This document shows positions 59,490 through 63,686 of a stretch of DNA of 64,000 nucleotides, in pieces. A program made the position numbers and the translations under genes. Every line of letters starts with the position of its first letter. Within the stretch, counting starts at the first letter, position 1. The notes under the pieces were generated by a model. That model was not told the DNA's origin, did no database searches, and was given only the letters and a program-made list of their open reading frames with translations. This DNA comes from Candidatus Latescibacterota bacterium (GTDB lineage Bacteria > Krumholzibacteriota > Krumholzibacteriia > WVZY01 > JAKEHA01): assembly GCA_963707635.1 (NCBI GenBank), contig OY970173.1:1760001-1824000 (forward strand). Direction: 5' to 3'.

Positions 59490-60716
59490 TCATGCGGACG
59501 CCACCAACGCCACCTTGACCGCGCGACTCCCGCGCCGGCCCAGCGCGAGGGCGAGCCCGTGGTCGAAGTCCGCCAGCGGCACGACGTGCGAAACTAGCGC
59601 TTCCAGTGCGCGGCCGGGTTCACTCGCCAGCAGGTTCGCCGCGGCCTGAAACGCTCCGCGCTTCGCCCCGCCGTGGGTCGCGTCGTGGTAGCAGAGACTC
59701 CCGTGCAGCGAGATCTCCTTGAGCCACAAAGGTGTCCAATCGACCCGGGGTAGACGCGCGACGTTGGCGAGCAGCGTGATCGATCCCCCGGCGCGCGTGA
59801 AACGAAGCGCGTCGCCCACGGCGGCGTCGCCGCCCACGCACACGAAGGTGGCGTCGAACCCGCCGACGTGGATGCGTGGGCCCAGGATCGGTTTCAGCAG
59901 CCGTCCGCCCACGATGCGCGAGAGGGCGGGGACGTAGTCGCCGTCGCGCTGCATCACGACACGATGGGCGCCGAGACGCTCCGCGTGCGTTTTTTGAAAT
60001 TGGTGGCGAGCAAGGACCGTCACCTCCGCGTCGGAAAGCATCCGCAGCGCGGCGAGGGTCAAGAGACCGACCGACCCGGCGCCGATCACCAGCACGCGCG
60101 AACCCGGCGCCGGCGGCCGATCGAGCACCGGGGAGACCGCACACGCGAACGGTTCGGTGAGCAGGGCCAGACGATCCGACACGTGGTCGGGGACGCGGAC
60201 GACCTGCTCCTCGTGCGCGACGTACTGCTCGCCCCAGCTTCCGCCGAGTCCGCGGGTGGTTCCCAGCAGCATGCCGGGCGCGATGGCGCCGTCGGTGAAG
60301 TGCTCGCAGCGCGACGGATGGCCGCCCGCGCAGTGGGGGCACGGCGGGTCGATCCCGCGCACCGCGCACGCGAGCAGGGGATTCACAACCACCCGCTCCC
60401 CACGGGTGACGCGTGTTACGGCGGCGCCGGTTCCAATCACCGTGCCGACGTTTTCGTGCCCGATCACGAACGGAAACGACGAGAACGGCGAGGTGGAGGG
60501 CGACACGCGCAGCCGCACCAGGTTGAGGTCGCTCCCGCATATGCCGCCCATGCGGGTGGCCACGCGCACCCAATGCTCGCCCGGGAGCGCCGGCGGCTCC
60601 ACGTCGCGAAGTTGCGTGCACCGGTAGGCACCGGTCAGCGCGCGCGGCGTGATTGCCCCAGCGGCGCGCGTCAGCAGGTAGCGCGGGATGGCGCCGTCGA
60701 AGACGACCGCTTTCAT
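59490..60716 (-). CDS. Zinc-dependent (MDR family) alcohol dehydrogenase
   Basis: GICGSD, GHE, C..(PPCPHC)...C structural Zn site, GAGSVG. Confidence 0.9.
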   Translation of the reverse strand: MKAVVFDGAIPRYLLTRAAGAITPRALTGAYRCTQLRDVEPPALPGEHWVRVATRMGGICGSDLNLVRLRVSPSTSPFSSFPFVIGHENVGTVIGTGAAVTRVTRGERVVVNPLLACAVRGIDPPCPHCAGGHPSRCEHFTDGAIAPGMLLGTTRGLGGSWGEQYVAHEEQVVRVPDHVSDRLALLTEPFACAVSPVLDRPPAPGSRVLVIGAGSVGLLTLAALRMLSDAEVTVLARHQFQKTHAERLGAHRVVMQRDGDYVPALSRIVGGRLLKPILGPRIHVGGFDATFVCVGGDAAVGDALRFTRAGGSITLLANVARLPRVDWTPLWLKEISLHGSLCYHDATHGGAKRGAFQAAANLLASEPGRALEALVSHVVPLADFDHGLALALGRRGSRAVKVALVASA

Positions 60717-61639
60717 CCCCCGGCTCCCGTCGCGGAGCCCGGCGGCGCGCAGACGCGCAGCGCGTTGGGGACCGCCTCGATCACCAGCGGCGACACACTG
60801 TCCACGACCTCGCCGTCCACTTCGTAGCGCAGCGGTCCACCGGTGTCGACGGTGAACGACGACGCCTGGCGCATCACCACGTGGTCGAGTCCTTCGTGCG
60901 TGCCCTTCGACACGATCGAGAACAGGCGCGCGCGTGTGAGCGGGCCCGCGTCGCGGATCGCCACCGCGTCGAGGCGCCCGTCGGAGAGACTCGCGCGCGG
61001 GGCGATATGGAACGACCCCCCGAAGTAGTTCGCGTTGCTGATCGTGAGCATGAGCACGTCGAGCGGCATCGGCGTCTCGCCGTCGGCGGCGAGCGTCACC
61101 CGCGTTCCCGGAAAACGGAACAGCTGGCGCAGCGCGCAGAATCGGTAGAGAAGGTCGCCGCGAAGCAGCGGCGTGCGCGCCGCGTCGTCGATCACGGCGA
61201 TGTCGAAGCCGAGGCCGACCACGTTCAAGAAATGCCGGCCGGCGACGCGGCCGACGTCGATGGTGGTGGTGGCGCGGTCCGCGATCGCGCGCACCACCTC
61301 GTCGATGCGCTCGTGGCGGATGCCGAGCGATTTGCCGAAGTCGTTGCCGGTGCCGGCGGGGAGCAGGCCGAGGATCACGTCGCGGCGCCCGCTGCGAACG
61401 ATCCGGTCGGCGGCGACACTCCAGGTGCCGTCCCCGCCGACGGCGACGATGCGCTCTGCGCCGCCGGCGATCGCGCGGTCGAGGAGACCGACTTCATCGC
61501 CGGCCCGCTTCGTGTAGACGGGTTCGACCTCGCCCAGGTGGCGCTGCAGCAGGCTGACGTAGTCGCGCAGCCGGCCGGCGCGGCGGCCGCGACCCGCCGC
61601 CGGGTTGACGAGTACGAACGTGGATCCGCTCCGGGACAT
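60713..61639 (-). CDS. Diacylglycerol/sphingosine kinase family lipid kinase
   Basis: VNPAAG, VGGDGT, PAGTGNDF, IDVG, FGG, EVDGE. Confidence 0.92.
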   Translation of the reverse strand: MSRSGSTFVLVNPAAGRGRRAGRLRDYVSLLQRHLGEVEPVYTKRAGDEVGLLDRAIAGGAERIVAVGGDGTWSVAADRIVRSGRRDVILGLLPAGTGNDFGKSLGIRHERIDEVVRAIADRATTTIDVGRVAGRHFLNVVGLGFDIAVIDDAARTPLLRGDLLYRFCALRQLFRFPGTRVTLAADGETPMPLDVLMLTISNANYFGGSFHIAPRASLSDGRLDAVAIRDAGPLTRARLFSIVSKGTHEGLDHVVMRQASSFTVDTGGPLRYEVDGEVVDSVSPLVIEAVPNALRVCAPPGSATGAGG

Positions 61640-61662
61640 GGGAACGGTGACGGTGGTGAGCG

Positions 61663-62325
61663 CTAGATGCTCTGGAGCTCTTCGAACGTCTGGACGCCGT
61701 TCTTCATCCACAGCTCGCGGAAGGGGAACGACGCCACGTCGGCGTTGAGAACGGGTTCGCACATGGGGTGCGGGTGGAGCACCAGCTCGCCCGATTCCTC
61801 CTCGTGCTCGGTGAACTCGCCTTCCATGTGGATGTCGGCCTTGAAGCGGCGGCTCGCATCCACCGTGAACGCCTGGTAGAGGTGGTTCACTTTCGACCAG
61901 CGGTGCGGGTTGACCACCATGTCGAGGATCCCGCGGCCGTTCTCGTGCGCGTGCACGCTCACCGCGCCGTTCTTGTCCGTGAAGTCGACCTGGATGTCCG
62001 CCATGAAGTGGGGAAGGTGCCAGCGCTCGATGGCGTGCAGGCGCGACGCTTCCGTGCTGGTGCCCACCGCGAAGGGGAAGAACGCCGAGCGTGGAAACTC
62101 GCCGCCGACGCCGATCATGGGCGGTGTGATCACCGCCAGCACCAGCTCCTGGTACGTGCCCACCTCGCTCCCGGTGAAGTCGAACGCGGTCACCGCGAAC
62201 ACGCCGAGGCCGTGCTTGACCTCCATCGGTTCGAGGTGCGCCGGGAGCGCCCGCTTCGCGGCGTCCCGGGACATCTCGAAGAATGCGCTGACGGCCTGGC
62301 TGAAGTGGTACCGGGTCAGGGGCAT
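61663..62325 (-). CDS. Acetoacetate decarboxylase-fold protein
   Basis: AKRALPAHLEP...FDFTGSEVGTYQELVLAV...AIERWHLP pattern; no Lys at the usual Schiff-base position. Confidence 0.65.
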   Translation of the reverse strand: MPLTRYHFSQAVSAFFEMSRDAAKRALPAHLEPMEVKHGLGVFAVTAFDFTGSEVGTYQELVLAVITPPMIGVGGEFPRSAFFPFAVGTSTEASRLHAIERWHLPHFMADIQVDFTDKNGAVSVHAHENGRGILDMVVNPHRWSKVNHLYQAFTVDASRRFKADIHMEGEFTEHEEESGELVLHPHPMCEPVLNADVASFPFRELWMKNGVQTFEELQSI

Positions 62326-63686
62326 AGGAAGCCGTGTCGGTCGAGGACGCGCGCGATGATATCCGCCGCTTCGCGCAGTTCCTCGCGCGTGTGCGAGGCC
62401 GTGACCGAGATGCGCAGTCGCGACCGGTGCTTGCCCACGGCGGGGTAGCGCACGGGATTGAGGTAGACGCCGTTGTGGATCATGTCCTCGGCCACCTTGA
62501 AGATCCGGTCGTCGTCGCGAATCATGATCGGTATCACCTGCGACTTGGAGTCGCCGATGTCGACGCCGCGGCTGCGCAGGTGTTCCTGCAGGAGTGCCGT
62601 GTTTTCCCACAGGCGGGCGCGCAGCTCGGGCTCGTCGCGCGCGATCTCGCACGCCTTGATTAGCCCGCCGACCACGCCGGGTGCCAGCGCGCACGAGAAC
62701 ACGTATGAGCGGCCGAAGCCCTTGAGATAACGAATGAGCTTCCGCGAGCCGACGACATAGCCGCCCTGGCCGCCGAGGCTCTTGGAAAACGTTCCCAGGT
62801 GGATGTCGATCTGGTCGTCGAGGCCGAAGTGCTCGGCGACGCCGCGGCCGTTCTTCCCGAACAGGAACGCGGAGTGCGCCTCGTCGATCATGATACGCGC
62901 GCCGTTGCGCTGGGCCACTTCCACGATCTCGGGAAGATTGGCCAGGTCGCCGTCCATCGAATACACGCCCTCGACGATGACGAGCTTGCGACCGGGGAAG
63001 TCCTTGAGCTTGCGGTCCAGGTCGGCGGCGTTGTTGTGACGGAAGTAGCGGACGTGCGCCTTGGAGAGGATGATCCCGTCCACGATGCTCGCGTGCGCGA
63101 ACTGGTCGGTGACGACGAGGTCACCGGAGCGCATCAACCCGGCGATCACGCCCAGGTTGGCGCCGTACCCCGAGGGAAAGAGAAGGCACTGTTCCTTGTT
63201 CTTGAACTGCGCGAGCTTGCGCTGCAGCTCCTCGTGGAGCTCGGTGGTCCCGCTCAGGATCGGCGAGCCGGACGCGCCGGTGCCGAAGCGGCGGGTCGCA
63301 TCGCACGACGCCTCGATGACCTCGGGCCGGTAGGACAGGCCGAGGTAGTTATAGGAAGCGAGGTTGATCAGCCCGTGCAGCCGCGCGTGGTGGAGCTGCT
63401 CGACCACGTCCACGCGCGGGCGGGGGGCACCACTCATCGGCTGGCCGAACAGGTAGTACCCGGCCGGCCGGGCCTCGTCGAACCAGTCGTCGAACGGGTT
63501 CAGGATGTCGAATGGGTCCTTGCCAGAACCCCAGAAGAAGTTGCTATAGTCGAGGTCGTTCGCCGTCGACGAAACGGGAGCGGCCGGCTCCGGGGCCGGC
63601 GCGGATGGCTCGACAGGGGCTTTCGGCGCCGACTCGGGCGCGCCGGCGGCGTCTTGCACGCCGTCTCGTAACGGTCTGGGTGGCAT
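62316..63686 (-). CDS. Alpha-oxoamine synthase family PLP enzyme (serine palmitoyltransferase-like)
   Basis: ASYNYLGL, GSPILSG, SGYGAN, HASI, EGVYSMDGD, DEAHS, GTFSKS. Confidence 0.88.
   Translation of the reverse strand: MPPRPLRDGVQDAAGAPESAPKAPVEPSAPAPEPAAPVSSTANDLDYSNFFWGSGKDPFDILNPFDDWFDEARPAGYYLFGQPMSGAPRPRVDVVEQLHHARLHGLINLASYNYLGLSYRPEVIEASCDATRRFGTGASGSPILSGTTELHEELQRKLAQFKNKEQCLLFPSGYGANLGVIAGLMRSGDLVVTDQFAHASIVDGIILSKAHVRYFRHNNAADLDRKLKDFPGRKLVIVEGVYSMDGDLANLPEIVEVAQRNGARIMIDEAHSAFLFGKNGRGVAEHFGLDDQIDIHLGTFSKSLGGQGGYVVGSRKLIRYLKGFGRSYVFSCALAPGVVGGLIKACEIARDEPELRARLWENTALLQEHLRSRGVDIGDSKSQVIPIMIRDDDRIFKVAEDMIHNGVYLNPVRYPAVGKHRSRLRISVTASHTREELREAADIIARVLDRHGFLCP

Follow-up and report, generated by a model that had tools for sequence, protein, structure and literature searches.

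What lipid would a bacterium build from a serine palmitoyltransferase (SPT)-like enzyme and a lipid kinase, with neither of the known ceramide-pathway partners beside them? The question is raised by four minus-strand genes near the end of the window analyzed here, a 64,000-nt stretch from a Candidatus Latescibacterota bacterium (GenBank assembly GCA_963707635.1, contig OY970173.1, positions 1,760,001 to 1,824,000). An original prediction, made from the letters alone, had read them as a non-canonical sphingolipid or aminolipid operon. The genes encode a pyridoxal phosphate (PLP)-dependent oxoamine synthase, a protein with the acetoacetate decarboxylase (ADC) fold, a YegS/BmrU-type lipid kinase and a zinc-dependent medium-chain dehydrogenase/reductase (MDR); Pfam and NCBIfam scans returned, in that order, Aminotran_1_2, ADC, DAGK_cat with YegS_C, and ADH_N with ADH_zinc_N. 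We find that they belong to a conserved divergent cluster of seven genes, of which they form one arm. On balance, its sequence features favor synthesis of a membrane phosphosphingolipid along the lines of phospholipid assembly.

Open reading frame (ORF) coordinates bear out the tight coupling of the four genes: synthase and ADC-fold genes overlap by 10 nt, a 23-nt gap separates the ADC-fold and kinase genes, and kinase and MDR genes overlap by 4 nt. Opposite them, and mostly past the window edge, lies a plus-strand arm of three coupled genes for a PlsC-type acyltransferase, a Tam41-like protein and a CDP-alcohol phosphotransferase (Table 1). The host genome is a single contig of 3.2 Mb, 96% complete. 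The ADC-fold gene was present in 25 of the 61 relatives; among metagenome stretches 86 of 266 carried it, and among candidate GTDB stretches 367 of 377. GTDB loci were counted in the best 80 of the 367 stretches that match the ADC-fold gene, wherever enough flank was available; they are nearest relatives and hence not independent of each other. Around the ADC-fold gene, these loci carry the kinase (71/74), PlsC (63/65), Tam41-like (63/65) and CDP-alcohol transferase (59/65) genes, with the oxoamine synthase adjacent in 60 of 77 and the MDR in only 12 of 70. In metagenome loci the counts are 46/50 for the PLP enzyme, 49/51 for the kinase and 16/35 for the MDR. All 25 relatives that carry the ADC-fold gene also have the Tam41-like gene, as does one fragmented genome (26 of 61 in total); it was absent from the other 35. 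In some loci all cluster genes share a single strand.

The 10-nt overlap of the synthase and ADC-fold genes is kept in 55 of the 62 GTDB loci where both adjoin, and such recurrence is not chance. Of 15 genomes without an adjacent synthase, 14 encode a member of the same clade at another site (three of them in pieces), and all six detached copies that were fetched have an ADC-fold gene directly downstream. Since the MDR is found in few loci and the genes of the divergent arm in nearly all, it is the seven-gene cluster, not the four-gene order, that is conserved, and in most loci the cluster lacks the MDR. The original prediction is supported as to a sphingolipid- or aminolipid-type pathway without the bacterial ceramide synthase bCerS, and as to a PLP enzyme other than the genome's Kbl or a BioF. 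It is not supported as to the four genes forming the unit, with three more starting at position 63809.

A promoter scan of the 122-nt divergent gap found no sigma-70 consensus match. Among RNA runs, two metatranscriptomes reached a 5-6% word share, and short contigs derived from relatives span portions of the synthase, ADC-fold and Tam41-like genes; such contigs show neither expression of the host genome nor an operon. The cluster is not described in the open-access literature text that was searched, although the supplements of PMC11334938 may already list the synthase clade among Spt-like proteins.

The synthase is SPT-like by context and motif, judging from its sequence, and lies outside any known SPT clade. 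As originally noted, it carries a GTFSKS motif (residues 298-303), in which Lys302 is the PLP lysine, and a Pro/Ala-rich N-terminal extension (48% Pro+Ala in residues 1-44) that is variable or absent beyond its closest relatives. Catalytic residues His198, Asp268, His271, Lys302 and Arg425 are present, and those that PMC10196870 names for PLP binding and catalysis map to His198, Asp268, His271, Thr299, Ser301 and Lys302. The best PDB match is the Sphingobacterium SPT (288 bits; next, 249). With reference synthases labelled by NCBIfam or by gene order, all 27 clade members and all 16 SPT references have GTFSK(S/A/T), and none of the 15 BioF, Kbl and ALAS sequences does. Ser141, Pro142, Leu144 and Ser145 are nearly invariant in the clade, and Ser141 corresponds to the Ser of SPT at the selectivity position of PMC11906848, which excludes the Val of Kbl and the Thr of ALAS, not BioF.

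In a 34-row tree of labelled sequences, the synthase clade fell on the SPT side of a split with 99% support. Its sister group consists of two fusions of fatty acyl-AMP ligase, acyl carrier protein (ACP) and oxoamine synthase (P0005, P0007), and the clade sits among uncharacterised ACP- and polyketide synthase (PKS)-fused synthases. All trees were quick searches with SH-aLRT support only, on rows that did not include labelled eukaryotic LCB2 or CapA.

The ADC-fold protein is predicted to bind the synthase. It passes the Pfam ADC cut-off marginally (33.1 bits against 29.8), and its structural model (pLDDT 94) matches ADC with Z 21.9 and a root-mean-square deviation of 2.5 A over 200 residues. 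The fold is that of the ADC-like superfamily (ADC 3BH2, MppR, the S. bingchenggensis aldolase-dehydratase and Swit_4259), from which the protein differs in its 12-14% identity, the missing catalytic-motif lysine and its predicted role as a PLP-enzyme binder. An RWHLPH motif is invariant, as are Glu60, His97, Arg101 and His106. There is no conserved Schiff-base lysine: His106 stands in 32/32 sequences at what we take to be the P-K position of the ADC catalytic motif, and the only Lys-rich column holds lysine in 16/32. Schiff-base chemistry is therefore not expected. The ADC profile matched no PDB sequence, and a protein atlas search with the protein returned generic ADC clusters only. Nine longer matches had suggested ADC-fold fusions, and the two that were inspected were frameshift artefacts; a fold match to 25-phosphosteroid lyase (Z 7.6) was within background.

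Modeled together, the synthase and ADC-fold protein scored 0.61, against 0.00 for the best of three controls. The mark used is reached by 116 of 157 solved pairs and 2 of 215 mismatched pairs, a calibration that holds roughly for a model with one synthase chain and self-made alignments. At least 95% of contacts are shared between runs, and the partner pLDDT is 90 or higher. The predicted interface joins the clade's N-terminal segment and the 414-421 loop of the synthase to a surface of the ADC-fold protein that includes conserved Glu17, His38, Pro69, Glu175 and Arg203, and the invariant Glu60, His97, Arg101 and His106 lie outside it. Its segments are predicted at residues 52-57, 202-214 and 418-421 of the synthase and 37-40, 67-73, 173-176 and 202-203 of the ADC-fold protein. 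Of five ADC-fold paralogues beside detached synthases, four retain most of these conserved partner residues without the histidine motif. After duplication, by this model, binding seems to part from a possible role in catalysis. Such second paralogues (L254, L255, L257, L259) no longer carry RWHLPH but retain His38, the proline at 69, PFRE and most of the HEE stretch, all within the predicted interface.

The Tam41-like protein connects the cluster to sphingolipid loci of other bacteria. Tam41 was its top match in profile (E 3e-6) and Foldseek (E 1e-8) searches; against Pfam PF09139 it scores 23.4 bits (gathering score 24), and the nucleotidyltransferase motifs GS, D, K, GR, SYxGxIR and Q are all present. 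It shares fold and motifs with the Tam41/Mmp37 CDP-diacylglycerol synthases (PDB 6IG4, 7ECD), but is 12-17% identical to them and has a further helical region, also conserved, at its C terminus. The Caulobacter gene order recurs on a Roseomonas plasmid, where aasR-, cerR-, acp- and spt-like genes precede those for a hypothetical protein, a kinase and a CDP-alcohol transferase. HHalign pairs the Tam41-like protein with that hypothetical protein at 99.7%; the cpgC-slot identity comes through the Roseomonas protein, assigned by gene order, rather than through the Caulobacter CpgC sequence itself. Homologues of the Tam41-like protein occurred in 13 genomes of a 301-genome sample, and 11 of the 13 loci adjoin spt, cpgA-, cpgB- or bCerS-like genes.

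The Caulobacter crescentus spt-cpgC-cpgB-cpgA locus, which serves ceramide phosphoglycerate (CPG) synthesis (PMC9393093, PMC11324152, PMC10331486), likewise brings together an oxoamine synthase, a DAGK-family kinase, a CpgC-family protein and a CDP-alcohol transferase, and the CpgC-slot protein, as represented by the Roseomonas one, is homologous to the Tam41-like protein here. The two loci differ in synthase clade, kinase clade and transferase, all of which are distinct. The cluster here also lacks AasR, AcpR, CerR, bCerS, CpgD and LptF2G2, and adds the PlsC-type acyltransferase and the ADC-fold protein. Caulobacter CpgC acts on ceramide-1-phosphate: cpgC mutants retain ceramide phosphate and lose CPG, and the protein is described as without conserved domains (PMC9393093). 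Its mechanism is called unidentified in a 2026 preprint (PMC13228409), and an open-access text search for CDP-ceramide with bacteria and sphingolipid returned no paper.

The remaining conserved enzymes have the appearance of phospholipid-synthesis proteins. The kinase passes TIGR00147 (155 bits against a cut-off of 118.65) and holds a GGDGT motif. In the PlsC-type acyltransferase, HX4D and FPEG are intact and kept across 29 rows; it scores 44/103 (score/cut-off) against the housekeeping family TIGR00530 and is barely alignable to the genome's other PlsC. The CDP-alcohol transferase is nearest inositol-phosphate types, under their cut-offs (132/180, 100/350 and 94/170). Elsewhere, the genome has its own CdsA and PlsC genes, three further CDP-alcohol transferases and a better match to phosphatidylinositol phosphate (PIP) synthase, so the cluster is a parallel route. 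Ino1 is present too, and because it occurs in 58 of 61 relatives its co-occurrence with the cluster does not discriminate. A PIP-synthase-like transferase together with Ino1 recalls the Bacteroides thetaiotaomicron inositol sphingolipid pathway (BT_1522-1526; PMC9246714). There, however, an AUR1-like enzyme moves phosphoinositol onto ceramide, whereas the parts found here suggest activation of ceramide phosphate. As a separate observation, a VTT/DedA-family membrane gene, a candidate lipid flippase, follows the kinase in 13 of 70 GTDB loci (L120, L123, L129, L139, L143 and others).

The MDR is accessory to the cluster. Both of its zinc sites are intact, and its top NCBIfam score is to Tdh, under the cut-off (93/380). 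It was found in 17 of 26 cluster-carrying relatives and not found in nine; of the seven cluster genomes of a sister family, none yielded it. Longer MDR forms yielded one match, with a low-complexity tail. The originally proposed reduction of the 3-keto product by this enzyme is plausible from gene position only, and is not supported as a core step of the pathway. Nine MDR-less metagenome loci have a short-chain dehydrogenase/reductase (SDR) gene upstream of the synthase; these are close kin, three with short flanks. One known bacterial 3-ketosphinganine reductase resembles its yeast counterpart (PMC9278070). One genome carries a parts-swapped cluster (L334:2994-11123; G007:C6) of oxoamine synthase, GNAT/FemAB, DAGK, CdsA-type cytidylyltransferase, bCerS-like protein and an MDR homologue, the last 34% identical and directly behind the bCerS-like gene, in the CerR slot. 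In another (L335:6499-14278; G047), the neighbors of a 43% MDR homologue are a 1453-aa acyl-reductase/AMP-binding/ACP/acyltransferase protein and a Lar_N protein; the MDR family thus recurs in lipid clusters.

Known ceramide-pathway genes are missing from the operon, as originally stated, and so is any bio gene. No bCerS match was found in the 96% complete genome with single queries or with 2-row and 4-row profiles. The one CerR-like candidate, an NDUFA9-like protein, is unlinked, among housekeeping genes, at 32% identity and E 1e-21; the bar in PMC11334938 is 1e-30. The first-step chemistry is likely the same as in the Spt, bCerS and CerR pathway (PMC11324152, PMC11334938), whose canonical spt-bCerS-cerR block occurs in other genomes of the same bacterial class; the genome here differs in having no bCerS match and only the unlinked NDUFA9-like reductase. 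Of the 26 relatives with the cluster, 2 have a strong bCerS match, compared with 9 of the 35 without it, and in four of four non-cluster relatives examined bCerS adjoins a Bacteroidota-type SPT.

From these families, folds, catalytic motifs and gene linkage, which can be read directly, we infer every substrate of the following scheme. The synthase would condense serine with a long acyl thioester to a 3-keto long-chain base, with the ADC-fold protein docked at the active-site entrance loop, where it may receive or pass on the product. The ketone would then be reduced by an exchangeable enzyme, the MDR here and an SDR or unlinked CerR-like protein elsewhere. The kinase would phosphorylate C1 of the long-chain base, and the PlsC-type enzyme would acylate the amine of the phosphorylated base, much as PlsC acts on the sn-2 position of lysophosphatidic acid, in place of bCerS; the order of these two steps is suggested only by retained phosphate-binding motifs. 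The Tam41-fold enzyme would next form CDP-ceramide, to which the CDP-alcohol transferase would add a head group, with inositol phosphate the best guess. The free phosphorylated base that the original prediction took as the endpoint gives way here to a membrane phospholipid, the likely product given the acyltransferase, cytidylyltransferase and CDP-alcohol transferase.

Several observations weigh against a phosphosphingolipid product. All NCBIfam SPT models score the synthase below cut-off (361/640, 343/500 and 281/670 bits); seven proteobacterial references pass an SPT cut-off, and the Bacteroidota-type SPT references that were scored reach 519-625 against 640. The synthase forms its own clade (96-100% support) outside both known SPT groups, a 116-row tree shows three separate groups, and approximately unbiased (AU) tests, restricted to labelled rows, did not reject grouping with Kbl, BioF or ALAS (p 0.18, 0.13 and 0.24). 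The substrate loop reads GSPxLSG in the synthase and its clade and GSRxxNG in 16/16 SPT references; in Sphingobacterium SPT this loop lines the substrate pocket (PMC10196870), and the amino acid or acyl chain may therefore differ from that of SPT. Nor is the kinase an orthologue of CpgB (reference from PMC10331486), with cross-profile scores of 6-24 bits and separate clades. A single cpgA-slot query at E 1e-3 matched nothing in the genome, the cluster's CDP-alcohol transferase included. Nor does a simple relay from CpgC to CpgA account for the CPG that Caulobacter cpgA mutants continue to make (PMC9393093). Most GTDB loci have no reductase gene, and in 17 of 77 the synthase is detached from the cluster. 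PlsC is not a strict bCerS replacement, since in a separate sample, which overlaps in part with the relatives, a strong bCerS match accompanies the cluster in 15 of 37 genomes. To our knowledge, all characterised relatives of PlsC, YegS, Tam41 and PIP synthase act on glycerolipids, and we know of no PlsC-family N-acyltransferase.

A rival reading keeps this assembly logic on another backbone: with a different amino acid or acyl donor, the product would be a phospholipid built on a non-sphingoid aminoketone or aminodiol, and a step on the ketone may be catalyzed by the ADC-fold protein. That reading accommodates the two SPT-invariant loop positions that differ in the clade, its ACP- and PKS-fused neighbors, the reductase missing from most GTDB loci, and the four ADC-fold residues that are invariant yet outside the predicted interface. 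We nevertheless consider it unlikely, as the kinase and CpgC-family enzyme imply a serine-like primary hydroxyl and Ser141 matches the SPT serine at the selectivity position (PMC11906848), though this is common to BioF. The cluster could also consist of two co-travelling modules, in which kinase, PlsC, Tam41 and transferase form a spare glycerophospholipid route (diacylglycerol to phosphatidic acid to CDP-diacylglycerol to a phosphatidylinositol-like lipid) and the synthase and ADC-fold protein do something else. The genome's own CdsA, PlsC and better PIP-synthase match argue against such a spare, as do the retention of detached synthases in 14 of 15 genomes, the ADC-fold copy kept by each half after a split, and the way the Tam41-like family marks proteobacterial sphingolipid clusters. 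Even with the glycerolipid precedents for these four families, a bacterial Tam41 structure in the PDB (7ECD), the 17 of 77 detached synthases and the near-ubiquity of Ino1 (58/61), two such modules seem decidedly improbable to us.

The shorter route, from synthase through MDR reductase and kinase to free sphinganine-1-phosphate, draws on the intact zinc sites of the MDR, its 34% homologue behind a bCerS-like gene in one genome, where CerR stands elsewhere, and the SDR upstream in nine MDR-less metagenome loci (close kin, three short-flanked). With the MDR in 12 of 70 GTDB loci, not found in any of the seven sister-family cluster genomes and less conserved than the three downstream lipid enzymes, we hold this to be very unlikely. 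That the synthase is instead BioF, or Kbl paired with a Tdh-like MDR as once offered as an alternative, is hardly credible. The highest NCBIfam scores of the synthase are indeed to bioF and the BioF/Kbl subfamily (370 each), the MDR scores highest to Tdh, and AU tests reject neither grouping. All of these scores are under cut-off (TIGR00858, BioF, 370/426; TIGR01822, Kbl, 303/493), however, and no family cut-off for SPT, BioF, Kbl or ALAS is passed. A true Kbl (620/493 bits) is encoded elsewhere in the genome, roughly 4 kb from a better Tdh match, and E. coli queries for BioB and BioD matched nothing in the genome. The BioF RPPTV loop is absent, the clade reading YPAV, and the Val of Kbl is not in the synthase or the commonest clade variants. 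The proposed phylogeny against SPT, BioF, Kbl and ALAS gave a mixed outcome: a clade of its own on the SPT side of the 99% split, with the alternatives unrejected. A phosphosphingolipid made in phospholipid style remains the reading that we prefer.

Table 1. Coordinates of the divergent cluster; plain numbers are window positions, and those prefixed G000:C1 are positions on the genome contig.
Feature	Position	Strand	Basis or location
Oxoamine synthase gene, 456 aa	63686-62316	-	ORF and family scan
ADC-fold gene, 220 aa	62325-61663	-	ORF and family scan
YegS/BmrU-type lipid kinase gene, 308 aa	61639-60713	-	ORF and family scan
Zn-dependent MDR dehydrogenase/reductase gene, 408 aa	60716-59490	-	ORF and family scan
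Divergent intergenic region, 122 nt	63687..63808		Between synthase start and plus-strand arm
PlsC-type acyltransferase, 273 aa	G000:C1:1823809-1824630	+	5' end in window at 63809..64000
Tam41-fold cytidylyltransferase-like gene, 348 aa	G000:C1:1824632-1825678	+	Beyond window edge
CDP-alcohol phosphotransferase, 244 aa	G000:C1:1825675-1826409	+	Beyond window edge

Other genes lie nearby. An OmpA protein with TSP3 repeats (58391-59347, minus strand) follows the MDR in close relatives; it has a promoter-like site upstream and is probably a separate unit. Beyond it are a 344-aa lipoprotein-like ORF with no Pfam or NCBIfam match (57145-58179, minus strand) and, 5-10 kb from the cluster, genes for FabH-like, MsbA-like ABC transporter, LpxF-like PAP2 phosphatase and GT4 proteins (49793-54629). 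The cluster also appears in five records titled Gammaproteobacteria, Proteobacteria or bacterium (L139, L147, L154, L158, L159), three with a strong bCerS match and one with a second CpgC-like gene. In L102:4287-6954 a Ser/Thr kinase gene is apparently split over frames, which suggests indel errors in that assembly.

A survey of sphingolipid producers notes Spt-like genes without bCerS and CerR and suggests non-homologous replacements (PMC11334938). Screens for such producers seek Spt, bCerS and CerR together; the cluster names candidates for the replacements, and its ADC-fold gene, with 367 matches in GTDB contigs, is a marker for it. More tentatively, we raise the possibility of a third bacterial sphingolipid route across Krumholzibacteriota, Gemmatimonadota and Eisenbacteria, which would combine a two-subunit SPT with a lysine-less ADC-fold partner, a PlsC-family ceramide synthase acting on sphinganine-1-phosphate and a CDP-ceramide intermediate. 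If so, such an SPT, bound to a partner subunit, would stand apart from the bacterial SPTs described so far, which are soluble homodimers (PMC11906848). The CDP-ceramide intermediate would also explain Caulobacter CpgC: the Tam41 fold predicts CTP-dependent formation of CDP-ceramide by that enzyme, which makes its mechanism testable in Caulobacter.

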